64,000 nt of DNA, from IMG/VR virus record IMGVR_UViG_3300050821_003619, positions 1-64,000 of that record; one strand, 5' to 3'. The translations under genes were made by a program, and so were the position numbers. Below the pieces are notes generated by a model. It saw only the letters and a list, made by a program, of their open reading frames with translations. It was not told the origin of the DNA and did not search any database. Positions 14,896 to 49,219 of this stretch are shown here, one piece after another (positions within the stretch are counted from its first letter, which is position 1; the number at the start of each line of letters is the position of its first letter). The DNA comes from a virus.

Positions 14896-14903
14896 AACTC
14901 ATC

Positions 14904-15002: not shown

Positions 15003-16319
15003 TTATTCGTTTTCGTAAGCCTGAATCCAATTTACTACAGATTCCGACCATCCGTCAAGGTGGCTCCATTTTCCGTATCCGATACCGTTCTGATAAGAAG
15101 CCACATTGATCACGTATCCTACACCGTTAGGTGTAGATACTGTCTGATGCGATTGCTCATCAGTAACGATGATGATACGGTCGTAACCACGGGCATCAGC
15201 TACTCTTTTCGCTGATTCCGTGTTGGTTGACCCGTGGCTTGTAGCGTTCTTAATTGCATCTCGAAGCGCAAAACCTCTACGGGCTGGAACCAAAACGGGA
15301 GAATTTGAAAACGAAAGAACTTCTACGTCTTCACAAATCTCACGAAGGAGAATAGCCAGAGCACAAGCCGCATCACTGCGGTCGATCTCACTCTTTGCCG
15401 AAACTGGGGTACCGTACATGCTACCAGAGTTATCTACAAGAAGAATCGTCTTGCCCTTTAGCTTAGGCATCTTCTCCAATGCCTTGAACATAGCCTGCTC
15501 TAATTCAGGCTCTAGGTCTGGGGCATACTTCGCCGCAGAAATGAATCTGAATGGCAGCACTCTGCTCACATCAATCTTTCTCAAGGCGCTCTTGATCAGC
15601 GTCTTGCTTACCCCAGACTGCTCCATATTGCGAAGGTTACGCAATAGAGCCAACGCTCCAAGCTTCTCTTCTTCGATCAGTCGCGTAAAGGTTTCACCCT
15701 TGTCAGCGCCTCCTGAGAGAGCAACTTCCCACGTATCTGGCGTCTTCAATTCGTTATTGACAACCTTCTTGAAAAGCTTTTCCTGTTTCTTATTCTCAGG
15801 CTTAGCGTGAGAAAGGAAAAGAACATCGCGCAGCTTTACTGCACCGTCACGGTTGTACTTAGCAAGTGCATACTCTTCGAACTTACCGAAGGCTCGCGCC
15901 AATCCACGCTTACTCTGCGCTGATAAAGGCTCCTTGCCGTCTTTCCAATAGATTGCCACGTACTCAGTCAACTCATCTGGGCGCTGAATTACGCGTTCCA
16001 GAAGTTCCGCTACGTACTGACGCTCAGTCACTTTTGGGTGACGGGCCAGTTCACGCGCTAACAATAGAGGTACGTGACGTAGCTTCATTTCTTCTCTCGC
16101 CTTAACAGCGATGTCAGCTACGGTTTTGCCGGGAAGCGAGTGCACCAGCGTCTTAATACGCTCTGCGATTGCCTGCCCGTCTTCATAAAATTGGTCTTCC
16201 CAAAGCATGCACGCCATTACTGAGCGCTCTAATTCTTTTGCTTTGGTGATTTTCTTTGCAACTGCACCTTCATGTGTGAAGATAGGTGCAGACTTTACTG
16301 CTCTGTTTAGGGTAGCCAT
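15003..16319 (-). CDS. rsr: Ro60/Rsr TROVE-domain RNA-binding protein with vWA domain
   Basis: QRPDEL, LAKYNR, LRDVLFLSH, TWEVALS, ALLRNLRN, RVLPFRF, MIDAS DNSGSM, IVTDEQ. Confidence 0.95.
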   Translation of the reverse strand: MATLNRAVKSAPIFTHEGAVAKKITKAKELERSVMACMLWEDQFYEDGQAIAERIKTLVHSLPGKTVADIAVKAREEMKLRHVPLLLARELARHPKVTERQYVAELLERVIQRPDELTEYVAIYWKDGKEPLSAQSKRGLARAFGKFEEYALAKYNRDGAVKLRDVLFLSHAKPENKKQEKLFKKVVNNELKTPDTWEVALSGGADKGETFTRLIEEEKLGALALLRNLRNMEQSGVSKTLIKSALRKIDVSRVLPFRFISAAKYAPDLEPELEQAMFKALEKMPKLKGKTILLVDNSGSMYGTPVSAKSEIDRSDAACALAILLREICEDVEVLSFSNSPVLVPARRGFALRDAIKNATSHGSTNTESAKRVADARGYDRIIIVTDEQSHQTVSTPNGVGYVINVASYQNGIGYGKWSHLDGWSESVVNWIQAYENE

Positions 16320-16363
16320 AAACACTCCTGAGTCAAATTTATACTTCTACTGCCGAACAAAAT

Positions 16364-18945: not shown

Positions 18946-18955
18946 AATAAAAATA

Positions 18956-19273
18956 ATACTAACTCTGTAAGCAGGATTCTGTCAATGGAATATTTTCCAC
19001 CGGACAATCATTCGTCTTAGCTTTCAACCCGATGGCTCCCCGAGCAGGATCACTGCCATCCTATTTGAAATTGCTGCCCCTAGAGATTGCCCGTTTCACT
19101 CCCACTCAAGGGATTCGTCACTGTTGCTCTTATCGTAGCCTCGCGGCTCCCGCAGCTTCCACGGTAGGGTGCTCTTTGCAGTCCTGACTTTCCTCACCTT
19201 AAGATGAAGCGCTCCGCAAGGTATTAACCACACAGTGCTTGATCCGATAAGGCGCGATTGTCTGAGTTAGTAT
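18956..19273 (-). ncRNA. rnpB: RNase P RNA
   Basis: Conserved GAGGAAAGUCAGGAC and ACAGAAUCCUGCUUAC (P4), GUGAAACGGGCAAUC, AAUGAUUGU; P1 AUACUAACUC/GAGUUAGUAU. Confidence 0.92.
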
Positions 19274-27657: not shown

Positions 27658-27714
27658 AAATAGCCCCGTAGGAACTTAGGATAAAACCTAGGCTCTTACG
27701 GGGCTATTTTTTTT
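27658..27714. terminator. Terminator between convergent operons
   Basis: AAATAGCCCCGTA...TACGGGGCTATTTTTTTT. Confidence 0.8.
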
Positions 27715-29305: not shown

Positions 29306-29334
29306 ATTATATACCCCTGCTAGGAAAATGTCAA
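29306..29334 (-). promoter_or_regulatory. Perfect sigma70 consensus promoter
   Basis: TTGACA-N17-TATAAT. Confidence 0.85.
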
Positions 29335-29399
29335 CTAATTTGGTGCCTAGGCGTTAAAGCGCCTAGCTAGGGTTTAGGCGGAAAATAGCCTAGGGTCCT

Positions 29400-29699: not shown

Positions 29700-30870
29700 T
29701 AATCTTCGAAGAATAAACGTACGCTGTACGCTGTGAAGGTCCGGGAGAGATAGCAGGAACAGCTAAGGGAAGAGCCCGTGTGATACGGGGTAGACACAGC
29801 TAAACGGCGGGGTCTGCAACTAAGGAATTAGTAGTACAAGGTCGGATAGTCTAGTGAATGAGTAGGCATAAGAACAGCAATCACAACAGTTTAGATTAGT
29901 CAATACCCTAATAGTCACCAACAGTAATGGCACTGGTTTAGTGTTATAGTCAACTACAACACTTCTGGTTTGATTACCTTAAACGTTACCGGGCACGCAT
30001 TAGAAGCCATATGAGCGCCTGTGGGTATTTGAATGGATGTGAGTGTGGTTAACGCCTTGGAAGCTCACCTAGGGCAAATGGCTAGGCTTGCTGCCCTATC
30101 CTAGAGTGTGTGTCTATATACCTAGTAGTGCCTCCATACTCTCCGGCGAAGATCAAGCGTATTGTGTACGGTCATATAATAGAAGACAGTCGAGGTTTAC
30201 CGTACGGTGAAACCAGCCCAGCGAATGACCGGCGAAGCTTTGGTAAAAGTTTAACTCTATTTGGTGTGTTATCAACAGCTTGCAGCATGTTTACTGGTTT
30301 GCTATATGCAACAGGAATGGCTGTGATAATGTGTTCCTACCAAACGCGATAAGTCAAGAGCGAATGGCGGTCGGCACCCGAAGCAGGGTCAGTAGATTAA
30401 ACCGGCGAGTTGAGGGCCTTCAATCCTCGACGAGCTACCCTAGACGGGCAATGGCAGAGCGCACGACAGGCTCAACCGGACGGTGCTAGCTGAATGGCTG
30501 AAAAGTCTAATGTTCACCCTACGTGCGAGGGTCAATCGCTCAATCTCAAGTACACTCCTAAGCTTACGGGCGTGCCGATTGAGGCTATCAGATGCGAAGG
30601 GCATCATAGAGCACATCGGAATAGGGAGCGCTACAGCAGGAAGGCAGCTTACGCCGTATCAAGCAGCCTGCTAAGCACGTATGAGAGATTGAGACAACTA
30701 AAACGCACAGTGGATTCGGATAGTGATTGCGACACTGACTGACCACTTAAAACAACATCAAAGCCCTACAGAGTGAATCGCAGCCTAGTTGCAAAGGGCT
30801 GCGCGAGTGACCCGTAGGCTATACGCATGAGCATATGCCTTGCCAGTAATCAAGCTAGCTCACGCGTTAA
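29700..30870 (+). ncRNA. Large structured non-coding region (putative long ncRNA or early leader)
   Basis: No RBS-supported ORF over ~1.2 kb; many local and long-range helices. Confidence 0.55.
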
Positions 30871-30871
30871 T

Positions 30872-30962
30872 GCACGTAGGTCCTAAGCCTTCGTGCTCAC
30901 TGCTCCACCACATCATACGATTGGTTCAATAAGAGAGCAGTGAGTAGGAGGGCTTAGACATG
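30872..30962 (+). promoter_or_regulatory. SD-switch element A
   Basis: GCACGUAGG-UCCUAAG-CCUUCGUGC, hairpin, GGAGGGCUUAG-AC-AUG. Confidence 0.6.
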
Positions 30963-31193
30963 AGACTGAAAGATGTACCATTCGCACCAGCGTACGTTGT
31001 ATTCCATGCTGCATATGACAATGGAGCAATGGACGTTTGGCCTGCTACAACCTTTGCCGAAGCACAAGAACGCGCTAGCCATCATCAGAGCAGACTTGAG
31101 GAATCTGGCTATGATGAGGCTGGTATCTGGAAGGCATACGAGAAGCTTCCACGCAAGAAGGTTCATATATTCCACACATTAAAGGGAGAGTAA
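30960..31193 (+). CDS. Early hypothetical protein
   Basis: GGAGG RBS. Confidence 0.65.
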   Translation: MRLKDVPFAPAYVVFHAAYDNGAMDVWPATTFAEAQERASHHQSRLEESGYDEAGIWKAYEKLPRKKVHIFHTLKGE

Positions 31194-31375
31194 TATGTCA
31201 ACACGCGCCACACTTCGCAAGTACGAAGCCGTACAAGAGCGGCATGATGCCGCATTCGACCGTGCCTTCTCTATTCGGCGAGAGGCACAGCGTATCCTTC
31301 GCCAGAAGCGTGCACAGATTAGAGTGACTGTGCTCAATGAGAAACGCGACCTACCATTCTAAGAGGAGATAATCA

Positions 31376-31579
31376 ATGACCACTGATGTTAAAGCTGTAT
31401 TGTCTGGGGAAGAAACACAGGACGCCATTGACTACGTTGAAACCGCTTTGGCCGAAGGCATAGGAGAGATTGAAGACATGCTGAGGCGCAGGGCTAGTAG
31501 GTACACACTGAAAAGCGAGGAAGCGCTCAAGATTCGCAAGGCGCTTGACTTACTTAACAGTGTAAAGGTTGGCATCTAA
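31376..31579 (+). CDS. Early hypothetical protein
   Basis: GAGGAG RBS. Confidence 0.65.
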   Translation: MTTDVKAVLSGEETQDAIDYVETALAEGIGEIEDMLRRRASRYTLKSEEALKIRKALDLLNSVKVGI

Positions 31580-31585
31580 GTATAT

Positions 31586-31730
31586 AACGCAAGGTTTGGT
31601 GCCTTGCGTTGGCCCATACACCTTAGGCAGGATCGTAGGGGACTTGCAGCACGCTAGAAGCACTCTTATGAGGCGCGTGTAATGGGTGTGGGTTCGACTC
31701 CCGCATGGGCCAACGGAGGGCACCAACATG
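31586..31730 (+). promoter_or_regulatory. SD-switch element B with tRNA-like T arm and acceptor stem
   Basis: AACGCAAGG-UUUGGUG-CCUUGCGUU; GGCCCAU...GUGGG-UUCGACU-CCCGC-AUGGGCC; GGAGGGCACC. Confidence 0.65.
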
Positions 31731-31913
31731 GTTGACACGTATATGTTCGCTGATAGTGTCACGGGTTTAACACACATGTTGACCCTGACACTTACACTTA
31801 GGCGACACGGATACACCACGCACGCACATACAAAGCGCGTTGCTGGATTCTTGTTGCATGTACTCACAGCTACACCTAAGCCGCATGCATCGCGGAAGGA
31901 ACGAGGTCTATAA
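31728..31913 (+). CDS. Early hypothetical protein
   Basis: ATG after GGAGG, in frame with track ORF 31686..31913. Confidence 0.55.
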   Translation: MVDTYMFADSVTGLTHMLTLTLTLRRHGYTTHAHTKRVAGFLLHVLTATPKPHASRKERGL

Positions 31914-32185
31914 TGCCAATCGATTACGAGCGTGCTAAGCGTGAAGGTCCCAAGCTTAAGGCTGCACTGACACGCGCAGCTAAGACGCCAGACGTTGCAC
32001 AACGTTTTGAGAGAGTTAAGAAGGCCTGCAAGCAAGCTGTGTACGCATGGGAGCAATGGGGCGCATGGCCCGACAATTGGCGTGTATGGGAATCTGCTCT
32101 TGTAGATGCTAGCAATGCATACACGCGTGAGACTGGCGTATACGTTAACACTCCGTTATTAAGCAGATTGGAGGGTTTACTCTAA
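31913..32185 (+). CDS. Early hypothetical protein
   Basis: Translationally coupled. Confidence 0.6.
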   Translation: MPIDYERAKREGPKLKAALTRAAKTPDVAQRFERVKKACKQAVYAWEQWGAWPDNWRVWESALVDASNAYTRETGVYVNTPLLSRLEGLL

Positions 32186-32379
32186 TGCAGAAGTGCACAA
32201 TCTGTAAGCAAGATATTGTCCTCGTGCCTAGTGCTGCTGAACGTGCCAAGCGTTACGGTGGCAAGGCTAGCGACTACACTAAGCTATTCACAGAGCATGC
32301 GGCATGCGTGCTCAAGAAGCGTAATGATGAAACCCGTGCATTGATCGAGCGCACCAAAGGAGAATACGTCAATGGCTAA
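32185..32379 (+). CDS. Early hypothetical protein, possible Zn binding
   Basis: CTIC...HAAC; coupled. Confidence 0.6.
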   Translation: MQKCTICKQDIVLVPSAAERAKRYGGKASDYTKLFTEHAACVLKKRNDETRALIERTKGEYVNG

Positions 32380-32719
32380 ATTGAAAGCTACACCAAAGAA
32401 CTATGCCGAAGCTGCTGAGGTTCTCGCAGGATGTGACAGCATTCGCCTAGGCAATAACACGTACCTTGAACGCGATATCATGAACAATATTACTGTGCGT
32501 CTGCACAGTACAGACATTGTGGTGTTTCACAAAGAAGGCAAGACCACTCTGCACACTGGTGGATATCGTACGGTCACTACAAAAGAGAGATTAAACCAGT
32601 TCATCAAGGGCCGTGTATACCAGAAGGATCATAACTGGTATTATGTTGTGAACCGTGGTGAGCTTGGCATCGATTGGAGCAAGCCTATTGACTTTGAAGA
32701 AGGCATGGAGGTGCAATAG
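32372..32719 (+). CDS. Early hypothetical protein
   Basis: AAGGAG RBS. Confidence 0.65.
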   Translation: MAKLKATPKNYAEAAEVLAGCDSIRLGNNTYLERDIMNNITVRLHSTDIVVFHKEGKTTLHTGGYRTVTTKERLNQFIKGRVYQKDHNWYYVVNRGELGIDWSKPIDFEEGMEVQ

Positions 32720-33028
32720 CGCCATGCACAAGTCTGCATATGACTTTCGCATCGAAGACCACGGCACGATCTTCCTGCTATGCCCAATAACGCCCAAGGC
32801 AGAGGCGTGGATTAGTGAGCATATACCCGAGGACGCGCAGCGTATGGGTACGGCAGTGGCAGTAGAGCACAGATATATCGAGGACATCGCTGCCGGTATC
32901 CTTGAGGATGGCTTAAACTTCTATCTGTAGGAGGCACGTATGCACCACGCTCTAGCCTTATTGCAGCTATGGGTTCTGCTGTGCATAGCTGTTAGTCAGT
33001 TCGTGCAAACCACTACTGAGGTGAACTA

Positions 33029-33304
33029 ATGACGCCGGAAATGTTCGCAATGAATCTTGTAGGTACATCCAATACAGTCACAGCGCAAACCATGCGGGGC
33101 ATTGTTGTGGATGCCATCAAGCAATGGGACGCACAGAAAGCCGCAAACTGGCATGGCTGCTGTAATGCTGCTGGACGCTTGGCCGACTTGGTTTGCAATA
33201 TGTATCATCCCAAGGATGCAAAGGCACGCAAGACTTGGCCCACTGCTACATGGGCAGAGATTATTGCTAGTGAACTTGGCATAGAAGTACCGGAGACAGA
33301 CTAA
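33029..33304 (+). CDS. Early hypothetical protein
   Basis: GAGGTG RBS. Confidence 0.55.
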   Translation: MTPEMFAMNLVGTSNTVTAQTMRGIVVDAIKQWDAQKAANWHGCCNAAGRLADLVCNMYHPKDAKARKTWPTATWAEIIASELGIEVPETD

Positions 33305-33469
33305 TGACTAGGTATGACGTGGCAAGATACGAGAATGCCCTGCAAGATATCCTTGACCAATTCATGGGTATAGCAGAGCAAGACCTGACTGTACTGGAGA
33401 AGCGTATTCGGCGCATCGCTGAAAGCACTCTTAGTTCTATCACTAAAGCACAAAGGAGCAGACAATAGC

Positions 33470-33724
33470 ATGCCCACCACGATTAACATCAAGCCTGATT
33501 ACAAGGCCATCCATGCTCGATTCAAAGAGGATGCTGTGCGAACCCTTGAAAGCTTTGCAAGCAAGGGCAGCAAGACTCTCACGCGTTCTGAGGTATACAG
33601 CTTTGTGGCAAGCCTCAGAGTCGCATTGGATACTATCACTGATGTAAGTGAACTTGAACAGTTGCGTTATGATTACGCCGAAGCCGCCAACAAAGTGTTC
33701 GAACGAGTACAGGAGGAGTACTAA
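33470..33724 (+). CDS. Early hypothetical protein
   Basis: AAGGAG RBS. Confidence 0.6.
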   Translation: MPTTINIKPDYKAIHARFKEDAVRTLESFASKGSKTLTRSEVYSFVASLRVALDTITDVSELEQLRYDYAEAANKVFERVQEEY

Positions 33725-34069
33725 TGACTAATCGCGCACGTAAAGCCGCACGCAAACGCTTCCGTAAACTGGCACGCAATGAATATCCACTGACGCCTGA
33801 AGTCCTAGCAGTGTATTGAGTAATGGGGACTACCTGAGTGTGCAAACACAAAAAGGCTTCCCTAAAGAGTATCCCGAGCATAGACCGCATTACGAATAGG
33901 AGATTACGATGTGGATGAGCCAGTTCAATGATTTCGTACACGGGGACCTTGAACAGTTGCATGCGCTGCTTGAAGAAGAGTGTACGTTAGATGAACTTCG
34001 CGCAGCCCTGCAGAACGTTGTGTTCAAGCTGTTGTATCTCACAAAACAACTCAAGAGTAAGTAGGTAGG

Positions 34070-34163
34070 ACGCAAGGATTAAACGGTGCCTTGCGTGAGT
34101 CATCGGGCCGCACTAAGTGCGCTAGGTTGGGCCAACGTCCGATGACTCATGGAGGGCACCATG
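34070..34163 (+). promoter_or_regulatory. SD-switch element C
   Basis: ACGCAAGG-AUUAAACGGUG-CCUUGCGU; GAGUCAUCGG/CCGAUGACUC; GGAGGGCACC-AUG. Confidence 0.65.
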
Positions 34164-34352
34164 CTTAATCAAGCTTATGACGTTGTTGGCAAAATCATGG
34201 AACACGAGGATGGAGTGCTTGACCAAGAAGAGACATTAGAGCTATTCCAGCATCTGGTAGACACCGGCATGGCTTGGCAGCTACAGGGTTCTTACGGTCG
34301 TATTGCTGTGGCTCTGATTCGTGCTGGTTATATCAAGCGAGGTACACGCTAA
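34161..34352 (+). CDS. Early hypothetical protein (LVDTGMAWQLQGSYGR)
   Basis: GGAGG RBS. Confidence 0.65.
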   Translation: MLNQAYDVVGKIMEHEDGVLDQEETLELFQHLVDTGMAWQLQGSYGRIAVALIRAGYIKRGTR

Positions 34353-34440
34353 TGATATGGAGAATAGTGTGCGCGTTGTGGATATACGAGTTCTTCGTAA
34401 AACCCTTGTTCGAACGCTATAAACAGGAGAACAATACAAA

Positions 34441-34698
34441 ATGACAATCAAAGAAGCTGCACAGATGGCACTCGATGTTCAGGACGCTTGTAACCTATCT
34501 GGCGTGGTGCATAGCTTTGCTGAGGTAGTCACTGCTTTGCGTAACTCTCCTGAGTGTACAGGTACAGACTGGGTGAATGAGCACCCTATCGTTACTCTGT
34601 TCCTTGACAAGCTATCTTCGTTGAACAACTACACCAGCACGCTAGGCTACATAGCAGCGTACGAAAAAGTTGAGAAGCTGGCTAAAGGAGAACAATAA
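34441..34698 (+). CDS. Early hypothetical protein
   Basis: AGGAG RBS. Confidence 0.6.
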   Translation: MTIKEAAQMALDVQDACNLSGVVHSFAEVVTALRNSPECTGTDWVNEHPIVTLFLDKLSSLNNYTSTLGYIAAYEKVEKLAKGEQ

Positions 34699-34699
34699 A

Positions 34700-35047
34700 A
34701 TGGGCAGGCCTCGCGGACTACGCAAGGGACCAGATGGTAAGTGGTATATGCCACAAGGAGGAAACAATGCATCGAAAGATAGCAATACTGGCAATGACAC
34801 TGTGCATAGGGTGGCTGCTGCTCCAGTTGTTAATACTGATCCTCAGCCTAGTGTACGGAGTAAGCGTACAGTAAGCATGGATTGGCAGCGCAATGATATA
34901 GTGACTGCCGAGGATGGTGCCGAGCGTAAAACAGCCTTGGTGCTGGGATGGAATGGCAGCAAGATCGTGGTGCAACTGTTGGATGGTGTAACACGCTTGA
35001 CGTTGGATGAGTCTCGCGTGCATTCTATCGGTGAGGTGGGAGTGTGA
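34700..35047 (+). CDS. Early hypothetical protein
   Basis: AAGGAG RBS. Confidence 0.55.
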   Translation: MGRPRGLRKGPDGKWYMPQGGNNASKDSNTGNDTVHRVAAAPVVNTDPQPSVRSKRTVSMDWQRNDIVTAEDGAERKTALVLGWNGSKIVVQLLDGVTRLTLDESRVHSIGEVGV

Positions 35048-35132
35048 CTGAGAAGCTAGCTATACGAGTGCTGTTCACATTCAACGTATTACTTGCTGTA
35101 TACATCTGCGTAATTAACTTGTGGAGGTACTA

Positions 35133-35417
35133 ATGGAATATAAGGACATGTACATGGAGCCCAGAGATCGATACGCGTTGCAGCTTGCACGTCAAAACTC
35201 TGGCTTGCCATGCTCAGATTGCGGTTCACATAAAGGTCACTTCTACTTCTGCACAGCATTGACTGGGTATTGGAACGCTGAGGTTTCACAGTCAGAAGAA
35301 GTAAGCATGGAAGATGTGCTTGGCAAGGCTAAGCCATACATGCAAGATGAGAACGCTGTGCCTGAGTTTGATGTGGCAGATACACGCTGGCTGAAAGCTA
35401 TGGGAGTCCTACTGTGA
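35133..35417 (+). CDS. Hypothetical protein with CxxC..H..C motif
   Basis: GGAGGT RBS. Confidence 0.55.
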   Translation: MEYKDMYMEPRDRYALQLARQNSGLPCSDCGSHKGHFYFCTALTGYWNAEVSQSEEVSMEDVLGKAKPYMQDENAVPEFDVADTRWLKAMGVLL

Positions 35418-35809
35418 GAAAGAAGGAAGCCCGTAAAGGACTGTGCTTCTATTGTGGCAAGCCAGCCAACACTGCAGATCATGTTATCCCACGAAGTATT
35501 GTAGGTTTCATGGAAGTAGAAGATACCTATCAAAACTATGTGGGAGCATGCCACTACTGCAACACAGACAAAGCCCAGATGACTATGGAAGAGTACAGAA
35601 CCTACAGAACGGTTCGTCATTTGTTAGCTATGTCCCCTGCAGTCTGCGTATCTAATATAGTTAGCCTTGTGATTGACCATAAGTTCTACGGGGAAATGCA
35701 CCCAGAGACACAAGGCAAGCAATACGAAACGTTGGTAAAGGAACATCTTGTAGTGGCACAACAGCGACCATCATCTTTGCAGTTCATTAAAAGGGGAAAC
35801 AACACTTAA
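35414..35809 (+). CDS. HNH endonuclease
   Basis: CFYCG..ADHVIP...NYVGACHYCN..K. Confidence 0.85.
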   Translation: MRKKEARKGLCFYCGKPANTADHVIPRSIVGFMEVEDTYQNYVGACHYCNTDKAQMTMEEYRTYRTVRHLLAMSPAVCVSNIVSLVIDHKFYGEMHPETQGKQYETLVKEHLVVAQQRPSSLQFIKRGNNT

Positions 35810-35811
35810 AC

Positions 35812-36711
35812 ATGAAGCGCACACTTCTTCTACTCAGCTTCGTCTTTGCTCTATTCACTCTGCCTGCTTCAGCTTGGAACTGCCCTACCGGTCAGATACG
35901 ACAGCAAGCACCAGCAGGCACACCGACCACCACGCCTTACTATGACGTGGTAGAAGGGATAGCATTTATTTGCGTACCAGCGACACCGATAACTCCAACA
36001 CCGAAAGACCCAAACTCGTCCGCAAGTTCAAACTCGAATGCGGCTGCATCGTCAAACAGTACAGCGACGGCAGTTTCGAACACATCCTCTATCCAAAGCC
36101 AAGGGCAGAAGCAGAGCCAAGGCCAGAACCAAACAGCTAACGGAGGGAACGCTACAGCAAGCAATAGTAATGCTAACAACGGTAATAACCTAAGCACTGC
36201 ATATAGCAGCACATACAATCAAGTGCGACAGGCACCTATGGCGTATGCTCCTGAGGTATTTAGTACGGCTGCATGCCGCGTGGGAGCTTCGGCAGGCGTA
36301 TCTGCTCCTATCGGTGGCATTAGTTTAGGTGGATCAAAGAAGGACAAGGACTGTGAGCGTGCTATCCTTGCCAGTCAATTCATTGCCCGAGGCAACTTGG
36401 TTGCTGGGTGCAAACTGCTCATGCACGTAGGTGTAGTGAAGGAGGCTCTTTCATTCGATGAGTGTATGATTGCTGTGCAGTCTAAGCCCGTGGTTATCGA
36501 GGCTCCAGTTGCACCTGTTATGCCTACAATCACTGTGAATGTGCCTGCACCAGTCATTACGCCTGTAGTGACCGTGGATAGGCAGGTAGTGGCTGAGAAG
36601 CCTACAGTGGTTACAGTTATAGTTCCCAAACCAAAGAAGCACGTATCGCATACGTGCCCGGTGACCGTTGAGCATGGAGTGAAAGTCATTCACGAAAAAG
36701 GAGAGAAGTAA
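35812..36711 (+). CDS. Exported protein with Ser/Asn/Gln-rich linker and Pro/Val-rich tail
   Basis: Signal peptide MKRTLLLLSFVFALFTLPASA. Confidence 0.65.
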   Translation: MKRTLLLLSFVFALFTLPASAWNCPTGQIRQQAPAGTPTTTPYYDVVEGIAFICVPATPITPTPKDPNSSASSNSNAAASSNSTATAVSNTSSIQSQGQKQSQGQNQTANGGNATASNSNANNGNNLSTAYSSTYNQVRQAPMAYAPEVFSTAACRVGASAGVSAPIGGISLGGSKKDKDCERAILASQFIARGNLVAGCKLLMHVGVVKEALSFDECMIAVQSKPVVIEAPVAPVMPTITVNVPAPVITPVVTVDRQVVAEKPTVVTVIVPKPKKHVSHTCPVTVEHGVKVIHEKGEK

Positions 36712-36713
36712 AC

Positions 36714-37166
36714 ATGTGCCTAAACAACATTACGAAACGATATGAACCGGCTGATCCAAAGGTTCGCAAAGCATGGAAGTATGTTAAAGTAGAAAGTGAT
36801 GGGACATTCGTGTCTATATTTCAAGGTTACTTTTATAGCACAGAGTGGAAAAAGTCGTATTGCAATTACACGATTAGTTGTACTAACGATAAGGCTAAAT
36901 CACACCATATGAGAGAGCAGTATATTCCCGGATTTCATGTGTTTCCTACTAGAGAGGAAGCACGTAAAGCAAAGAGTCTTATCGATAACAACGATGGTGG
37001 TTCCTTTTCTCATGCAGAAGGTATAAGGCTGGCACAGGTTGAAGTGCGAGGTGTTACTGTGGAAGGCACGGACGCAACCTCTAGTGAAAGTTCATACCTT
37101 GATGCCAATATTAAAACCTTGGTTGCTAAAGAGATGCGTATCATCAAGATTGTGAAGAAAGGATAA
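36714..37166 (+). CDS. Hypothetical protein (PGFHVF motif)
   Basis: Packed ORF. Confidence 0.6.
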   Translation: MCLNNITKRYEPADPKVRKAWKYVKVESDGTFVSIFQGYFYSTEWKKSYCNYTISCTNDKAKSHHMREQYIPGFHVFPTREEARKAKSLIDNNDGGSFSHAEGIRLAQVEVRGVTVEGTDATSSESSYLDANIKTLVAKEMRIIKIVKKG

Positions 37167-37169
37167 CTA

Positions 37170-37730
37170 ATGAAAAAGCTTAAAAAGAATACAATCAAAT
37201 TGCTGCGTAAGATTCAACAGCAGATCATGGCAGAACCCAAGCGGATAGATATGCATGATTTTGTTGAGGTGTTCGCACCTGAAGTCAAAATCAACTTGCA
37301 AGGGACCGAAGGTTCTCCCGAAGGTTTGCCTATTCCACCTTGTGGGACTCAGGCATGCGTTGCAGGTTGGGCTTGCCTGATTGGTGACCCCAATCTTGAA
37401 AAAGAATTAAAAAGAGTTCTAGTTGAAGATTCTATAACTTTCGTTAATGAACGTCACTTGGCCCTAGAGGAAACCATCCAAGACAAAGCTGTAAAGATTT
37501 TGGGAATCACTGAAGCACAAGGTGTACGCTTGTTCTTCTTCAAGGACTGGGGAAACTTCGAGGAAGACGAGTTTGGATACACGTTACACGATAAGAACTT
37601 TGAGCCCATTGAAGCAGGATGGCCCGAGAAGTTTTCGAAGCGTTACGAAAAATCTAAGACAGCTAAAGGCCGCGCCAAAGCAACATTTGATCGTATCGAG
37701 CACTTTATCGCTACGAATGGCGCTGAGTAA
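37170..37730 (+). CDS. Hypothetical protein (CGTQACVAGWA motif)
   Basis: Packed ORF. Confidence 0.65.
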   Translation: MKKLKKNTIKLLRKIQQQIMAEPKRIDMHDFVEVFAPEVKINLQGTEGSPEGLPIPPCGTQACVAGWACLIGDPNLEKELKRVLVEDSITFVNERHLALEETIQDKAVKILGITEAQGVRLFFFKDWGNFEEDEFGYTLHDKNFEPIEAGWPEKFSKRYEKSKTAKGRAKATFDRIEHFIATNGAE

Positions 37731-37736
37731 TTACTA

Positions 37737-37844
37737 GCGCAGGATGTGGTGTCCTGCGTACGTCACAGCGAATAAGTATGCTTGCCGACCTAGGCGGCGA
37801 TACCGAGCAGAAGAAGTAACTGTGACGCATGGAGGACACCAATG
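37737..37844 (+). promoter_or_regulatory. SD-switch element D
   Basis: GCGCAGGA-UGUGGUG-UCCUGCGU; CGUCACAG/CUGUGACG; GGAGGACACCA-AUG. Confidence 0.62.
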
Positions 37845-38131
37845 AGACCACGCTACAAACCGCAGCCCGTCGATATTGCATGGGCCAGACAAGTGCTGGC
37901 TACTGTAGCCGATGGCGGGACAGTTGTTTACCCGAGAACCAATATGCACTATATGGTGTCTCACTCACCTTTAACAAAATGATCTTGCTCAACACAAACA
38001 TACTCGATGAACGCTTTGACAGCTTCGTAATACACTGTCAGACCATCGATACGTTTAAGGTCCTAGGCTACAAGGTGCTACCTGACCTTGATGATGACAC
38101 TAACGGAGAAGGAGGGCTGAAGACTCAATGA
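37842..38131 (+). pseudogene. Hypothetical gene with apparent 2-nt frameshift at ~37965
   Basis: MRPRYKPQPVDIAWARQ...MVSH joins TFNKMILLN... if a TC duplication is removed. Confidence 0.5.
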
Positions 38132-38370
38132 CTAAATATAGATCGTTAACAGAGATAGCCGTTGAGATACTGAACGACTGGAAGGAACCATACTTCGGTG
38201 CCGTGCCGTATATCTTAGCTATGATCCAATTAGATAGTATCGATGAGAACTTCGGCGCTGACTCTGGCTTAAGCATAGTGCTTTATTTTCTTTCCAACGC
38301 TAACACTTGGAAGGGTGAGACAGCACGTAGGATCAAAGCCGAGCTACGGGACATGGTGAAGGGTAAGTGA
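38128..38370 (+). CDS. Early hypothetical protein
   Basis: GGAGG RBS, coupled. Confidence 0.65.
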   Translation: MTKYRSLTEIAVEILNDWKEPYFGAVPYILAMIQLDSIDENFGADSGLSIVLYFLSNANTWKGETARRIKAELRDMVKGK

Positions 38371-38395
38371 CTATGGTACCTAATCCTAATGTCTA

Positions 38396-38480
38396 GTAAC
38401 GTTACGTCACCTGTTACCGGGGTCATGTTACGTTACCATGACCGGCGTTACTTGCGTGGCTCTGCCTCTGCCTGTAGAAT
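38396..38480 (+). promoter_or_regulatory. GTTAC/GTAAC repeat cluster and promoter
   Basis: About six GTTAC/GTAAC units; TTGCGT-N17-TAGAAT. Confidence 0.5.
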
Positions 38481-38523
38481 GTGTATGTAGGCTGAGGTTA
38501 AGGCCACACAAGGAGAGTCACAC

Positions 38524-38706
38524 ATGTTGCTAGACGTTGAACAGATAACGGTTTCGTTGGTGGGAGACACTTCGCGCACGCTGAACACGTACGCTCACGG
38601 CACCAACCAAACGTTGCAGGATGTGGTTAACGAGGCTCTGGCTGATTGGGCCGACACCGTTGCTGCGGCACGGCTGGAGTCCTTCAGCATACACCGTATT
38701 AAATAA
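38524..38706 (+). CDS. Small putative ribbon-helix-helix regulator
   Basis: QITVSL beta strand, then TLQDVVNEALADW helix. Confidence 0.5.
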   Translation: MLLDVEQITVSLVGDTSRTLNTYAHGTNQTLQDVVNEALADWADTVAAARLESFSIHRIK

Positions 38707-38777
38707 GTTAACATTCAGGTTCCGTGGTAGGTCCTGAATTTCTCCTATCTGATTGATTCTAAAGGTAACTTCTGTTG

Positions 38778-38806
38778 TTGACTTGGTAACCCATCCATGG
38801 TAGCAT
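38778..38806 (+). promoter_or_regulatory. Sigma70-type promoter with overlapping GGTAAC
   Basis: TTGACT-N17-TAGCAT, extended TG. Confidence 0.55.
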
Positions 38807-38857
38807 GGTCTTGTTGCTGGTACCGCCTAAGGTGCCATTGCACAAGGAGAAACTACC

Positions 38858-39673
38858 ATGCCGCGAGGTCAATACGTACGTAAGACTCGTATCCAACCCA
38901 CAGTTGTCGAGCAGCCAGTAGAAACTGATTTGCTGGTAGCTGATACCGATGACGTAAACGATCTAGTACCCGCTGAGGCATTCGTTAGTATGCCGGGGTG
39001 GGACAAACTAGATGAAACTGAACAGAGCACTGTGCTTTCTGAAGGTCATGGTCTAGCCCATGAGTTACTTGTTCATGGGACAAGCCGCATGGCGATTGGA
39101 GCACATCTCTACAAGCTTCGAAACGTGCTCACACCTCATGGTCTGTACGGTCGCTTCTTGAAGTATTTCCACTTCAGCAAGCGTACAGCAGACCGATATG
39201 TTGCAGGTTATGAGAACGCCAACAAGCTTTTGCCCGAGCCTATTGTGCGAGCAGCGATGGCACGAGGCATTAACATCATTGGAGACACAGCAATGAAGCC
39301 GCTAGGTATCTATACCGGTGCGGTTAAGAAGCTGCCGCCACCCAAGAACCCGGATACTGTCCAAGCCAATACGTGGTTGAATCAGATCGAGCAGGTACGC
39401 AAGGATGAGCGCCAAGCGGCACCTGCCGGGATCATATCTATAGAGCCTATCGATGCACAGATGGCCCTGAAGGAATGCTTCAGGTTCATCAACACTCGAT
39501 ACAAGAGGCTCCCCAACAACAGCAAGACGCGCAGTGCATTTGTGCGTAGCTTAGTTGGTATGATTCTGAGTGAGCTTGGGGTAGCTGGCCCACAGACCTT
39601 CACACCGACAGCGGTGCCTGAGGATTTCCGAGCGCAACGAGGCAGGCCTCGGGAGCAAGCAGCCATAGCCTAA
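38858..39673 (+). CDS. Hypothetical protein, probably DNA-binding
   Basis: AAGGAG RBS; IG.HL..LR..L.PHG...F..FS.RTA.RY pattern; AT-hook-like RGRPR. Confidence 0.6.
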   Translation: MPRGQYVRKTRIQPTVVEQPVETDLLVADTDDVNDLVPAEAFVSMPGWDKLDETEQSTVLSEGHGLAHELLVHGTSRMAIGAHLYKLRNVLTPHGLYGRFLKYFHFSKRTADRYVAGYENANKLLPEPIVRAAMARGINIIGDTAMKPLGIYTGAVKKLPPPKNPDTVQANTWLNQIEQVRKDERQAAPAGIISIEPIDAQMALKECFRFINTRYKRLPNNSKTRSAFVRSLVGMILSELGVAGPQTFTPTAVPEDFRAQRGRPREQAAIA

Positions 39674-39918
39674 TCTCTAAAGCCAAGTTGGAGGACTGCA
39701 ACCACAGTCCTCCTTTACTTGCGCCTGAAAGGAGAGCATATGTCGAAGGACGAAGTAGTCACTGCTGCTCAACTCTATGGTGAGCACCATGACAACTGTC
39801 CCATCTGCAAAAAGAACAGCATAAGTCTTTGCAAGGAAGGCCGTATACTCATGGAAAACTTCTATGCGACCTTGCAAAACACGCTGAATAAGGGTTCGCC
39901 CAGAAAGGAGAACCACAA

Positions 39919-40113
39919 ATGAACATTCCTCCTCTGCCTAATGGAAAGGAGATCATCAAAAAGCGTATTCACAATTTGACAGGTACCATGACTAACATTC
40001 TCGGCTACCTTGAATTAGAAGAATACGAAAAGGTTGTCAAGTGGGTGAAAGAAGCCGTAAAGGAGCTTGACCAGTTAGCGAAGGCCATTGAAGTTCACAT
40101 CATCAAGCACTGA
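39919..40113 (+). CDS. Small protein resembling a HisKA dimerisation helix pair
   Basis: IHNLTGTMTNILGYLEL. Confidence 0.45.
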   Translation: MNIPPLPNGKEIIKKRIHNLTGTMTNILGYLELEEYEKVVKWVKEAVKELDQLAKAIEVHIIKH

Positions 40114-40479
40114 AGGAGACTTTCTGTGAACCCCAAGCACAGATTGACTGATTCATCAGTCTAACCTTGTATAGATGTTTATTAGCGATTCTGCTATACA
40201 AGGATTCCACCCCCGCTCAGAATCCTAACCATACCATTTGCCGAATGCAGACTACGGGCAAATGTTAATGGCTATATTCTCTGTAACCACACAGATGTCT
40301 GTTGAATTAAATAACCGCAGTAGAAAGTGGGCCATGTGGTAAGCAAAAGTAATTCCCAGTCAGTTCGTCTCGCATAGAGCGCGAGTTTGACCCTTTGGTT
40401 AGGCAATCAAACTCGCGCTTTATTGTGTCTTGCGTACGGTATTGCTTCCCTCGTTGTTTCGTACGGAGGACACTGAGTT

Positions 40480-40900
40480 ATGAAACATACGCCACAGTAT
40501 GTACACGATTATTACTTTACCAACATCAATCCTGAAACACTCAAAAAGAGAATCAAAAACGCACAACTAATACTCAAAGGTTTGAAGTTTGATGCCATTG
40601 CTTTCTCTGGCATGAGCGGGGCTCTGTTGGGTCCTCCATTGGCTCTCAAGATGGGCAAATCTTTGATTATGGTTAGAAAACCACACAGCGGTAGCCATTC
40701 CAGAAAGCGCGTAGAAGGAGACATGGCTGCTCATACGTATATCATCGTGGATGACTTTCAAGATACCGGCAAGACTGCACGCTACATTAAAGAATCAGTA
40801 GCTGAATTTTCATCTGAAGCAAAGCTGCTGGGAAGTATTTGAAATGAATCGGATGCATCTGTATAGAGGTTCACCATTAAAGTTGTCGGAGGTAAAATGA
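40480..40900 (+). CDS. Phosphoribosyltransferase-fold protein (3' end probably frameshifted at ~40834)
   Basis: PRPP-binding loop IIVDDFQDTGKT; MVRK loop. Confidence 0.75.
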
Positions 40901-41310
40901 TCAATGAATCAGATGCTAGACGTACATGGAACGGCTGGACTGAAATCCAGCGACGGGCGTTTTTAGAAGGCTACGAATTCAACACCAGCATAGCGCGGTA
41001 TTCATGGCCTATGCTTCCCTACCCAGTTCAGCAGCTAATGATGCAGGATAAGCACTCTGTAACCCGTGGGCCGATCATCGGCAAATGCGCGAAGTGTGGC
41101 AACGTATACGCATTGGATACTGAGGAGATCGTATGCCCACAATGTGAATTCAAAGGTGTACTGTGGGCATATGAGGGTAACCCGGCTGACCCTGAGGATG
41201 AAACACTAGAGTACATGCGCGACCAGCTAGGTACACCAGAGCTTTCAGAAGGTGACAAACTAGATATAACCGAGCTTAAACGTATTTATGAATTAGAGGA
41301 CCCACGATGA
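40897..41310 (+). CDS. Hypothetical protein with Zn ribbon
   Basis: CAKC...CPQC. Confidence 0.6.
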   Translation: MINESDARRTWNGWTEIQRRAFLEGYEFNTSIARYSWPMLPYPVQQLMMQDKHSVTRGPIIGKCAKCGNVYALDTEEIVCPQCEFKGVLWAYEGNPADPEDETLEYMRDQLGTPELSEGDKLDITELKRIYELEDPR

Positions 41311-42121: not shown

Positions 42122-42448
42122 ATGATTATCTCAACACGTACGTTCTATTTGCGCGACAAGCGGAATTTCCCTATCGCCACAGTTGCCACTGAGTTGAGCG
42201 AGCTTGGTGGGGTTTTCTATGGTATTACATCTTGGAATCCCAAGGATGTATTCGACAAAGCATTGTCTCGGGAGATTGCTATTGGACGCCTTGAGGTAAA
42301 CCCGAGCTATCTGCCCGTGCATGAGAACTTCAAGCGTGCAGTTATTACGGACATTGCCAATCGCCGGGATTTGCCTAAGCGTACGCGTGAAGCGGCTCAA
42401 CGTTGGCTCGATGCTCCACGTACGGAATTCATGGAGGGACCTCTGTGA
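42122..42448 (+). CDS. Hypothetical protein
   Basis: AGGAG RBS. Confidence 0.6.
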   Translation: MIISTRTFYLRDKRNFPIATVATELSELGGVFYGITSWNPKDVFDKALSREIAIGRLEVNPSYLPVHENFKRAVITDIANRRDLPKRTREAAQRWLDAPRTEFMEGPL

Positions 42449-45991: not shown

Positions 45992-47369
45992 TGCATTTTT
46001 AGAAAAGTTTCATAAAGAAGAAACTTTTGATACAGAGCAGAACATGGCTTACTGTATGGCTGATGCTCCAAATGCATTAGCAACATTCATGTCTAAGTTT
46101 AGTCCAAACATGGAATCGATATGGTTCTATGAGGGTAAATGCGAGATCAGATTCGATAAAGAATCACATAGATATTACAGAGTTGAAGAACTAGGAAACC
46201 TAACTCTTCTACGTGGAGTAACAAACGTAGTCCACATCATAGATCGTTCCATGGCTCTTATGCCGTGGGCAGCTAAGAAGGTGGCCGAGAAGATGATTAG
46301 GTTGGTAGCCACTGAAACAAGAGATGGGCAAATTTATCTTGTACCGATGACTCTGGCGTACTTCACTCAGCTTGTTATGGAAGCTAAGAAGGCTCCTAAC
46401 GAAGAGAAGGAAGAAGCAGGCGACATTGGGCACATGGCCCATGCATGCTTGGAAGATTCAATCCGGCATGCATTGGATCACACCGAAGACCACATTGTTC
46501 GTGAACTAAAAAATCTCCCCACAGATGAGAAGGCTGCAACCGCAGCTAACTCAGCATTCAATTGGATGAAGGCGCATAATGTGCGCTGGATTGAAACAGA
46601 AGGGAAGATATATTCTAAACAGTATGGCTACGCGGGAACAATGGATGGCCTTGCTTACGTTGACTCTTGTACTGATCGTACATGTTGTCGTAGTAGTTTC
46701 ACTAATCATCTCAGCCTTATCGATTGGAAATCTTCGAACTATCTTTATATCGAGTTTCTTTTCCAGACTGCGAGCTATCAGCACGCGAAGCAAGAAGAAT
46801 CTGGTATCAAGATTGAGGATCGCTGGGTTCTAAGGCTAGGAAAGAATGAAGACGAAGCTGGTAAATTCGAACCATGGTATATGGGACCGGAGGACTTCCA
46901 GCAAGACTTAGACGGTTTCTTAGCTTGTTTACGTCTGGTAGAATTGGTTGACTCAGTTACAGATCGCATGAAGAACCAAAAAGCTCTTATTAAAGGAGTA
47001 AAGAAGGAAGTACGAGAGACTCAGAAAGCAATAGAGAAGGCAGAAGAAAAGCTGGAGAAAGCCCGAGCCAAAGCCTTTAAGAAGACTCAGAGAGAAGCCG
47101 AAAAGGAGTTGGCTAATAAGAAAGCCGAAGAGGATAAGAACGCTCTGCGTATTGCTCGTGCTGCTGAGAAGGCACGCGTTAAAGAAGAAGCCCGAGCACT
47201 CAGGGAAACAGTTAAGCAAACCAACGCGGTAGCAAGCAAAACTATCCCAGAGCCTAAACCTGTAGAGATACCAGCAATTGTTAGTGCACGTCCCAAATCG
47301 GGATGGGCAGAGTTTGAAGAAGAAACCGTAGTTAAACCAAGAGTATTTACTATACCGGAGGAAGATTGA
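45981..47369 (+). CDS. PD-(D/E)xK exonuclease
   Basis: G...H, YAGTMDG, LIDWKSS, Q..SY. Confidence 0.8.
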   Translation: MSLDAFLEKFHKEETFDTEQNMAYCMADAPNALATFMSKFSPNMESIWFYEGKCEIRFDKESHRYYRVEELGNLTLLRGVTNVVHIIDRSMALMPWAAKKVAEKMIRLVATETRDGQIYLVPMTLAYFTQLVMEAKKAPNEEKEEAGDIGHMAHACLEDSIRHALDHTEDHIVRELKNLPTDEKAATAANSAFNWMKAHNVRWIETEGKIYSKQYGYAGTMDGLAYVDSCTDRTCCRSSFTNHLSLIDWKSSNYLYIEFLFQTASYQHAKQEESGIKIEDRWVLRLGKNEDEAGKFEPWYMGPEDFQQDLDGFLACLRLVELVDSVTDRMKNQKALIKGVKKEVRETQKAIEKAEEKLEKARAKAFKKTQREAEKELANKKAEEDKNALRIARAAEKARVKEEARALRETVKQTNAVASKTIPEPKPVEIPAIVSARPKSGWAEFEEETVVKPRVFTIPEED

Positions 47370-48859: not shown

Positions 48860-49219
48860 TACGCACGTATGAGGTAATCGCAAAGCCTATCGGACACGGG
48901 TTCGACTCCCGTCGCCTCCACCAAGCTACTCACGATGAATACCGGCTGACCCCAGCGTCTAGCGCGGAATCACGGCTAGGCCCGAGACGAATGCATCGTT
49001 ATCGGGAAAGTCGAGGATAATTCTCGTCTGGGTGAGTAGCTTAATGGGGGCGTCACGGCTTCGACGGTGGGAACTGAGGGATTTACTGACGTGCCGTTAT
49101 CGTACGCCGTTCGTTATACGGAGTGCAAAAACACAAATGCTAAGACTAACAAGTCTCGCAAGGCCTATGGCATGTTCTTCGGTGGAAACACTGTTGGACA
49201 GCTTTCTGTAGCTGCCTAA
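48860..49219 (+). ncRNA. ssrA: Circularly permuted two-piece tmRNA
   Basis: Acceptor piece ...GGACACGGGUUCGACUCCCGUCGCCUCCACCA (ends 48923) precedes coding piece GGGGGCG (49046); G3:U70; tag AKTNKSRKAYGMFFGGNTVGQLSVAA* at 49139-49219. Confidence 0.88.

Follow-up and report, generated by a model that had tools for sequence, protein, structure and literature searches.

An uncatalogued three-strand RNA element in the early operon of a soil phage, most likely a processing-coupled translation switch

In phage T7, RNase III cleaves polycistronic transcripts at specific sites, giving the upstream product a hairpin at its 3' end, and this cleavage can aid translation downstream (PMC6938266). The sites (R0.3-R1.3 in the early mRNA) recur between cistrons as hairpins about two helical turns long, with an asymmetric internal loop. 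Further details of T7 RNase III cleavage and translation are reportedly found in the work of Dunn and Studier in 1983 and of Panayotatos and Truong in 1985. In the cIII and N leaders of lambda, the ribosome site of an early gene is likewise hidden in one of two structures; for cIII this is said to have been described by Altuvia in 1987, with RNase III reportedly raising translation. In type I toxin mRNAs (hok, aapA), strands that sequester the Shine-Dalgarno sequence (SD) and strands that counter this follow one another, and processing switches the fold. The SD in the 5' UTR of the MS2 maturation gene pairs with an upstream complement, and a metastable hairpin that holds the complement delays this pairing (PMC4615214). 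Finally, for the T4 genes e, soc, 49 and I-TevI, early transcripts that read through keep the SD and/or AUG locked in a helix (PMC3014915).

Here, we describe an element found in four leaders of the early operon of an uncultured soil phage with a genome of 109,250 bp. The window that we analyzed comprises 64,000 nucleotides of this genome (positions 1 to 64,000 of IMG/VR record IMGVR_UViG_3300050821_003619). Each site has three strands, X, Y and Z, and a variable hairpin, P2, between Y and Z. Strand X resembles an SD, Y is an anti-SD, and Z holds the genuine SD and its spacer. X can pair with Y to form a hairpin, P1, or Y can pair with Z, stacked on P2, to form a long rod, which in this phage spans 20-23 bp and ends 0-2 nt from the ATG. 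P1 is present at all four sites with 8 bp, including one U.U mismatch at site 1. The gene blocks are tightly packed, and the only long gaps between them are those that the elements occupy; in all six internal copies, X begins 4-7 nt after the upstream stop codon. The genes that follow the elements are mutually unrelated, save for one orthologous pair, and the other genes of each block have strong SDs of their own. We conclude that this is a real RNA element that has not been catalogued, and that it is most likely a switch coupling translation to RNA processing.

The first-pass annotation had placed four elements between positions 30872 and 37844, and all four were borne out, each on the plus strand. 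At site 1, X (CACGTAGG, 30873-30880) pairs at seven of eight positions with 30888-30895; the 5' strand of the rod (30883-30905), which takes in the P1 loop, Y and the base of P2, forms 22 bp and one G.G mismatch with 30935-30957. Strand Z (30935-30962) contains GGAGG at 30947-30951 and leads to the ATG at 30960. The fold has a free energy of -44.7 kcal/mol, and its SD is more than 99% paired in the ensemble, with the exception of the mismatched G. The 77-aa gene that follows is orthologous to the gene after an element in a related phage (G005_a). At site 2, X (ACGCAAGG, 31587-31594) forms 8 bp with 31602-31609, or 11 bp if the helix is extended; the 5' strand of the rod (31596-31617) forms 21 bp and one mismatch with 31705-31726, and Z (31705-31730) carries GGAGG at 31715-31719, followed by the ATG at 31728. 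Site 3 has the same X sequence at 34070-34077, with 8 bp to 34089-34096; its rod pairs 34085-34108 with 34137-34160 through 23 bp and one mismatch, and Z (34137-34163) contains GGAGG at 34151-34155 before the ATG at 34161. The 63-aa protein encoded downstream matches phrog_3908. At site 4, X (GCGCAGGA, 37737-37744) forms 8 bp with 37752-37759, the rod pairs 37747-37768 with 37820-37841 (20 bp, two mismatches), and Z (37820-37844) has GGAGG at 37831-37835 and the ATG at 37842. This ATG opens a 46-aa gene, which is followed by an overlapping 50-aa gene; a 100-aa open reading frame starting at 37829 was considered as the target and rejected.

A weaker version had also been noted at about 40425-40480. 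The Y/Z core and the G.G mismatch of the other copies are indeed there, in a truncated copy (40425-40482) with GGAGG at 40465-40469 and an ATG at 40480, but its hairpin (40425-40473) has just 14 bp and there is no P1. The fold has a z-score of -2.8 and scores 22 bits with our covariance model R1, and a terminator-like hairpin lies upstream.

The description of P2 as a variable insert holds for the other sites, where it is a plain hairpin, but not for site 2, where P2 (31610-31717) is a conserved RNA that resembles a tRNA. Its predicted fold has a 7-bp acceptor stem, a T arm with a TTCGACT loop, a D-like hairpin and a long fourth arm; position -1 is U and the discriminator base is A. Conservation of the module extends to three phages, with homologous cores in relatives G001 and G003, and in G001 it sits within a perfect 23-bp stem. 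It is not a tRNA as such: it has the acceptor stem and T arm but lacks an anticodon loop in the fourth arm. The module has no 3' CCA, ARAGORN, which called 26 tRNAs and one tmRNA within the window, called none here, and the Rfam tRNA model stayed below its threshold (at best 21.5 of 29 bits, on the G003 copy). The same phage clade also carries Ro60, Y-like RNAs, an RNase P RNA and a two-piece tmRNA. Kinship of the rods to the Y RNA docking stems of the phage's Ro60 locus was rejected: the stem motif shared by the minus-strand Y-like RNAs (14437-14990) is absent from them.

The minimum-free-energy fold at each of the four sites is a single long rod that pairs the GGAGG, with z-scores of -6.6, -4.5, -5.3 and -3.9 against dinucleotide shuffles. 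We scanned both strands of the complete genome for helices of at least 17 bp with at most two mismatches. Of the 34 helices found, those at these four sites are the only ones that reach 20 bp and include an SD immediately ahead of a start codon, and the identical test on 1.4 Mb of other phage DNA gave one comparable case, which is a true homologue. Five further copies were identified in three related uncultured phages, one of them preceding an orthologous gene, giving nine copies in four phages. The continuous rods measure 20, 21, 22, 22, 23, 23, 25, 27 and 31 bp, none being shorter, and all nine are intergenic, near-continuous helices whose end lies 0-4 nt from the ATG. Hiding an SD would take far fewer pairs, and the lengths group around two helical turns.

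From the four sites, two folds that exclude each other had been proposed, in which the SD is either free or buried in the rod, and both helices are kept by compensating changes across the nine copies in four phages. The pairing, whose loss in relatives was to count against the switch, is thus retained there. For the rod, an unbiased MAFFT alignment of four copies has 97.6% of its cells paired, and 13 of 21 pairs have changed on both sides; no shuffle out of 500 equals this, and slid controls pair at 31-49%. A covariance-model alignment of ten copies has 196 of its 210 cells paired, most pairs being represented by three to five pair types. For P1, X:Y positions are paired in 70 of 71 cases across the nine copies, as tallied from the pairing table, and X and Y covary at positions where Z remains G: for X:Y at SD position 4, six copies have A-U and three have G-C, while at position 5 seven have G-C and one has A-U.

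The two helices follow different rules. X:Y is almost entirely Watson-Crick, whereas Y:Z is imperfect in all nine copies, with wobble pairs and a single G.G mismatch, which involves the first or second G of GGAGG and lies 8-12 bp from the base of the rod; at the corresponding place X always carries C. P1 loops vary from 3 to 11 nt, and neither they nor P2 share sequence between copies; the inserts are merely 22-51 nt in most copies and have no shared core. G003 additionally has two three-strand copies in which the SD lies 5-15 nt beyond the rod and not inside it. The tRNA-like stalks of G001 and G003 likewise have the three-strand arrangement with the SD outside the rod, although those G003 copies whose SD is not buried belong to a sequence family of their own, linked to the others only by the tRNA-like element.

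In all nine copies, the rod is the minimum-free-energy fold and lies 7-16 kcal/mol below P1 plus P2 (for the four sites of this phage, a fold with P1 enforced is 9-11 kcal/mol less stable than the rod). A transcript that ends just before the SD strand is predicted to fold into P1 and P2, so the nascent RNA is predicted to form P1 first. The barrier to spontaneous reopening of the rod is 15-22 kcal/mol, and reopening therefore needs outside help. The closing barrier, by a crude direct-path estimate, is 5-13 kcal/mol, mostly 5-8 kcal/mol, which would correspond very roughly to tenths of a second to minutes and overlap the times of initiation. A pseudoknot between the P1 loop and the spacer while P1 still stands would be possible solely as a short-lived intermediate. 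We regard as established how the elements are built and which two pairings compete, as well as the conservation and relative stability of each.

The best explanation of each element appears to be a cis-acting device for three-strand RNA exchange in the early polycistronic message, a reading that we hold tentatively and at a little less than even confidence. During transcription, X and Y would form P1 while P2 also folds; Z, once made, would displace X from Y and stack on P2, giving a near-perfect rod of 20-31 bp that hides the SD and ends close to the start codon. We propose, with the same reserve, that this rod is a processing stalk of the RNase III type. Being of substrate size, it would be cut by host RNase III, a double-strand-specific endonuclease, much as the intercistronic sites of T7 early RNA are. 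The remaining Y:Z would be an imperfect duplex, with its G.G and wobble pairs, and the perfect intramolecular X:Y hairpin would win, so that X takes Y off Z, the SD is freed and the next gene becomes translatable. The upstream message would then end in a protective hairpin shortly past its stop codon. Cleavage, the position of the cut and the direction of the translational effect are what we infer here. Modeling a cut 2 nt beyond Y gives a net hold of Y:Z over P1 of -2 to -13 kcal/mol (median about -8), compared with -22 to -27 kcal/mol for the Y:Z duplex without X; this hold would therefore be too weak to last at cellular concentrations. A cut leaving at least six extra pairs gives -13 to -18 kcal/mol, in which case Y:Z would stay bound and cleavage would silence the gene rather than activate it. 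As the three-strand design also exists without an SD in the rod, strand exchange seems to serve the stalk itself, as processing predicts. On the other side, the phage genome contains no RNase III gene, no RNA-seq run was found to contain this phage, the precise burial of the SD in nine of nine copies is unneeded by a pure processing stalk, and the G.G lies near the start of displacement by Z, a position that would also suit a kinetic brake.

That last feature belongs to a less probable reading, which we consider possible but rather doubtful: a kinetic limiter of translation of the MS2 type, for which no cleavage is needed. P1 would be a metastable trap that keeps the nascent SD free, until either a ribosome binds the clear site or Z displaces X and the rod shuts for good, giving a brief translation after synthesis and an RNA-only shut-off of selected early proteins. 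The P1 and P2 predicted on nascent RNA, the strongly favored closed state with its high barrier to reopening, closing times that roughly overlap initiation, the conserved G.G near the start of the branch-migration path, the rod end next to the ATG and the MS2 precedent all fit. It would leave unexplained, however, the constant rod of at least 20 bp stacked perfectly on P2, as well as the three-strand design in G003 and the tRNA-like stalks; a rod of 20-31 bp would probably be cut by RNase III anyway, and each element would limit just one small gene among others with their own SDs. Because most closing barriers are low, the open window would also be very short. Of the three functions proposed in the first-pass annotation (timer, ligand or protein switch, and RNase III-type processing), processing fits best and the timer is viable, but the ligand switch finds no support, since only the pairings and the SD are conserved. 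The Rfam search that the annotation had suggested gave no riboswitch or other family match even at E-values up to 5. Four copies from three phages have the same X/Y core (ACGCAAGG / CCTTGCGT), exactly or with a single base changed, a conservation somewhat beyond the needs of pairing, as might be expected if a phage or host RNA-binding protein, a helicase, a small RNA or a small-molecule ligand favored one fold. In the other five copies, however, the core has changed by compensating substitutions, and the differing loops and P2 leave no conserved pocket or loop to bind, making a trans-acting factor very unlikely.

The tRNA-like module raises the possibility that, at site 2 if not elsewhere, RNase P or some other enzyme of tRNA processing is involved. 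In the open fold, P2 resembles a pre-tRNA with P1 as leader and Z as trailer, and a cut by RNase P at the 5' end of the module would detach Y from Z and fix the SD in its open state. The acceptor/T-arm minihelix with its U at -1 and discriminator A, its conservation, and an RNase P RNA encoded by the phage itself (126.8 bits, 18952-19227) speak for this, but it fits just one of the nine SD-burying copies, and the G001 module is enclosed in its stem and the CCA is missing. An acceptor stem extended by leader-trailer pairing, as in the rod state, is a poor RNase P substrate. We therefore rate this reading as quite unlikely. Rather unlikely too is a combination in which the elements are autonomous RNA timers, with a short early window of translation and then a lock, while at site 2 the phage RNase P ribozyme cuts the tRNA-like module and licenses translation instead. 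A DNA-level element (operator, promoter, recombination site or cruciform), or a late promoter within the hairpin as in T4 gene e, is extremely unlikely. The arms are inverted repeats and the elements mark the borders of gene blocks, but the inserts have no common motif, the elements keep their register with the SD and ATG, and no sigma-70-like promoter was found inside any element. G.U pairs of the rod become A.C on the opposite strand, and the covariance model scores the four seed copies at 78-105 bits in sense and 24-33 bits in antisense; pair use and score gap together indicate RNA rather than DNA. A cassette with a self-cleaving ribozyme (hammerhead or twister) was also considered and rejected, as no family matched in 30000-41000 or in the elements of the relatives.

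The elements resemble the T7 sites, and the leader-trailer stalks of rRNA, in having a stalk able to enclose structured RNA, and share with T7 the repetition in a polycistronic early transcript. They differ in that the SD makes up one of the two rod strands and X is conserved as a third, whereas T7 sites have neither the SD of the next gene inside nor a competing upstream hairpin; cleavage of our elements is a proposal made here. With MS2 they share an SD paired upstream at equilibrium and, in P1, a putative metastable holder backed by covariation, but in the RNA genome of MS2 the structure occurs once, closes into a cloverleaf and forms no long rod, whereas the dsDNA phages here have four to five copies each, with rods of 20-31 bp and a conserved G.G. 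The lambda leaders concern single genes, the cIII alternatives lie within the start of the coding region, and there is no three-strand cassette and no homology in sequence or architecture. Relief in T4 comes from a late promoter inside the hairpin and involves no competing P1. The type I toxin loci are toxin-antitoxin systems with antisense RNA and 3' trimming, unlike our elements, which are intercistronic and repeated and have no antisense partner that we could see.

Natural RNA switches with compensating changes behind both conformations are uncommon, and this one has a clear design rule, in which a perfect decoy helix competes with an imperfect SD helix that has a single fixed G.G. Its three short strands can easily be mutated and restored in reporter constructs. 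If the processing reading is true, the phage ties the translation of a cistron to the cutting of its polycistronic message, and the release of the SD after the cut explains the need for a third strand. If the timer is true, the MS2 principle would extend to large dsDNA phages, as a protein-free counterpart of the T4 RegB shut-off; and should the timer be combined with the ribozyme at site 2, strand displacement, a mismatch brake and the phage's own ribozyme would schedule its early proteins. Under either reading, an uncatalogued family of cis-regulatory RNA is added from soil phages.

The four copies of a Shine-Dalgarno (SD) switch that the first-pass annotation had placed at 30872-30962, 31586-31730, 34070-34163 and 37737-37844 (s1 to s4) are confirmed. 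All run in the same order: an 8-nt SD look-alike (strand X), a short loop, the complementary anti-SD (strand Y), a variable hairpin P2, the real SD (strand Z, GGAGG plus a spacer) and the ATG. Each has one rod as its MFE fold, formed by pairing of the P1 loop and Y with Z and stacked on P2, with z-scores of -6.6, -4.5, -5.3 and -3.9, respectively. Of the 34 long helices found genome-wide, s1 to s4 alone combine a length of at least 20 bp with an SD immediately ahead of a start codon, and the same rod test on 1.4 Mb of unrelated phage loci gave one comparable match, which was shown to be a homologue. Strand X starts 4-7 nt past the upstream stop codon in all six internal copies. The start served by s4 is the ATG at 37842, followed by two micro-genes with an ATGA overlap, at 37842-37982 (46 aa) and 37979-38131 (50 aa); a 100-aa ORF starting at 37829 is also listed, probably an artefact caused by an ATG within the SD strand. 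Mapping the reads of two soil DNA runs revealed no variants within the elements, and no RNA run was listed for the phage.

The weaker version proposed at about 40425-40480 holds only in part: it shares the Y/Z core (40425-40473), but this is only 14 bp long and lacks strand X. Directly ahead of it, at 40374-40423, a G+C-rich hairpin of 15 bp with TTTATTG after it looks like a terminator; the 3' strand of this hairpin resembles strand Y.

Searches for relatives covered both GenBank and the uncultured phages of IMG/VR. No match was obtained in a megablast of 30500-38500 against GenBank phages. The element was absent upstream of homologues of the 63-aa protein encoded after s3 (0 of 37 loci), the 186-aa protein before s4 had no relative in IMG/VR, and the 299-aa protein had distant relatives only (L038 and L152-L156), all without elements. 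Scanning IMG/VR for the P1 pattern returned 113 stretches, among which the rod scan identified one true homologue, L055, and a Y plus Z pattern scan gave no true member among the 117 matches listed. G001, a 100-kb IMG/VR contig that is syntenic with the window phage at roughly 30-65% amino-acid identity (six-frame comparison), was picked up by the P1-palindrome scan; G003 was reached by a scan for a tRNA-like core, and a DNA polymerase search led to G005 and G009 (68% identity) and to G007 (60%). A whole-sequence scan of these relatives yielded five further SD-burying elements: G001_A (46405-46297) and G001_B (43924-43775), both on the minus strand, and G005_a (46115-46214), G005_b (46983-47091) and G007_a (14727-14824), all on the plus strand. 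The genes behind G005_a and s1 are orthologues, and the arms of these two elements differ almost everywhere; the downstream genes of the other elements are unrelated to one another. R1, a covariance model built from four copies, recovered all ten copies on the sense strand with filters off, at 105 down to 16 bits; a search with default filters through 581 kb from the genomes of the relatives added none.

The first-pass annotation had also proposed two competing folds, an open one with hairpin P1 (X:Y) formed and a closed one with the SD buried in the rod (Y:Z). This proposal stands and is supported by covariation of X:Y as well as of the rod. In a MAFFT alignment of four copies, made without reference to structure, 97.6% of the rod cells are paired and 13 of the 21 pairs have changed on both sides; none of 500 shuffles matched this pairing, and slid controls were 31-49% paired. 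With ten copies aligned to the covariance model, an alignment that leans towards the structure, 196 of 210 cells pair, with three to five pair types at most positions. We also compared the three strands in the SD register, where by our own tally X:Y pairs at 70 of 71 positions, nearly all Watson-Crick. Every copy of Y:Z has exactly one G.G mismatch plus one to three wobble pairs; in seven copies the mismatch involves the second G of GGAGG, and in s1 and G005_a, the orthologous pair, it involves the first. As the X:Y pair at SD position 4, six copies have A-U and three have G-C; at position 5, seven have G-C and one has A-U; and G007_a carries changes in each of the three strands (GTGC / GCAC / GTG). 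Because X and Y covary where Z is invariant, these data point to selection on P1 in its own right, beyond the rod. Shuffle tests of P1 in each element are individually weak (p 0.0005-0.1) and convince only when combined and taken with the register-specific covariation.

Folding calculations describe the balance between the two forms. For s1 to s4, enforcing P1 gives a fold 9-11 kcal/mol poorer than the rod, an RNA ending before Z is predicted to fold as P1 plus P2, and the SD is predicted to be >99% paired in the full ensemble. The closed form lies 7-16 kcal/mol below the open form, and along the direct path closing has to cross a barrier of 5-13 kcal/mol and reopening one of 15-22 kcal/mol; on a rough conversion of these barriers into rates, closing would be fast to moderate, with no unaided reopening. 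When a cut is modelled 2 nt past Y, the energy of the two-piece Y:Z duplex is -22 to -27 kcal/mol. Set against P1 with Z free, this duplex gains only -2 to -13 kcal/mol net, and the cut pieces should therefore part. A modelled cut leaving six extra pairs would keep the pieces joined.

A tRNA-like module makes up the insert of s2 (31610-31717), and homologues of it occur in G001 (46700-46572, minus strand) and G003 (about 37250-37385, plus strand). The module is built from an acceptor stem, a T arm whose loop reads TTCGAMT, a D-like hairpin whose loop reads ATCRTAGGGGA, and a fourth arm that covaries; it is not called as a tRNA. A long stalk encloses it in all three phages, and in G001 the stem around it is perfect over 23 bp and is accompanied by a P1-like competitor. 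G003 carries a second, two-copy three-strand family at 37632-37724 and 42307-42428 (plus strand; X GCGAGGC, Y GCCTCGCACA, Z TGTGTGAGTC), in which the SD of the next gene lies 5-15 nt beyond the rod. These copies and the tRNA-like stalk follow the same logic, with X:Y perfect and Y:Z imperfect, and in one of the two copies P1 belongs to the MFE fold. An isolated element in G001 (33207-33059, minus strand) combines X CGGTAAC, a 19-bp rod that contains no SD and a 99-nt insert. Since the three-strand detector has a background of 1.4 hits per 100 kb in its stricter version (and about 35-40 per 100 kb by chance in its loose one), this and other isolated triples without an SD may be chance.

The source record of the window is 109,250 bp long with direct terminal repeats and 45.6% G+C, and comes from a soil metagenome assembly. 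RNA genes are unusually abundant in the phage, with 26 tRNAs, an RNase P RNA (18952-19227, minus strand; 126.8 bits) and a permuted two-piece tmRNA (48863-49219, plus strand; 92.8 bits), and a Ro60/TROVE protein is encoded at 15003-16325 (minus strand). The elements sit in a plus-strand array of small close-packed genes, at about 30.9-39.7 kb, which ends in a terminator-like hairpin. Ahead of the first element is a long, highly structured, ORF-poor leader (29700-30870), with a counterpart in G001 (50100-49400, minus strand) that folds at -242 kcal/mol over 700 nt. Clusters of CTAGG/CCTAGG occur at the head of the early region (29320-29395 and 30069-30087), adjoined by a minus-strand promoter that is a perfect sigma-70-like match (29334-29306), and G001 and G007 have similar clusters at the same place; the CTAGG pentamer also appears in the P2 apical loops of s3 (34122) and s4 (37790). 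A hairpin of 21-22 bp with T runs on both strands (27658-27709), which separates the replication genes from the divergent early region, has the look of a bidirectional terminator.

Devices of this general kind are already known, both the hiding of an SD by alternative mRNA structure and the intercistronic processing hairpins of phage early RNA (PMC4615214, PMC3014915, PMC6938266). The three-strand cassette matches no Rfam family, and a full-text literature search found no description of it; with its fixed G.G mismatch, its four to five copies per genome and its conservation across at least four uncultured phages, it appears to be new. Several roles fit poorly. A riboswitch or ribozyme finds no Rfam match or conserved pocket, a DNA-level element is at odds with strand-specific pairing that includes G.U pairs, and an internal late promoter of the T4 gene e type would need a sigma-70-like site, which none of the elements contains. 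Short GTG or ATG frames that might encode a leader peptide occur in s2 to s4, with inconsistent lengths and stops, and s1 has none. A terminator/antiterminator is contradicted by Z lying downstream of P1 with no U tract after it, and the motif differs from that of a Ro60/Y RNA docking stem.

For function, we infer, at slightly less than even confidence, a processing-coupled switch. The rod would be cut by RNase III, an enzyme assumed to come from the host because no RNase III gene was found in the phage; RNase III cutting of T7 polycistronic RNA is the precedent (PMC6938266). Such a stalk is favoured by the length of the rod, never below 20 bp, and its unbroken stacking on P2, and also by the tRNA-like insert of s2, which shows that a conserved structured RNA can serve as P2. 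A kinetic limiter of translation, resembling MS2 control, seems distinctly less probable. Two features count for it and against processing: every copy in the clade of the window phage has its rod end 0-4 nt from the ATG, and the G.G mismatch is placed where it would be most effective in slowing strand displacement, both of which are natural in MS2-like kinetic control (PMC4615214). This limiter, however, leaves unexplained the G003 copies and the tRNA-like stalk, whose SD lies outside the rod; a translation timer cannot account for these copies, which count for the processing stalk. Our ranking of the two reflects the stalk evidence weighed against the ATG-proximal rod end and the mismatch position. 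The placement of X just past a stop codon fits a 3' cap for the upstream product, and the processing switch and the kinetic limiter could coexist.
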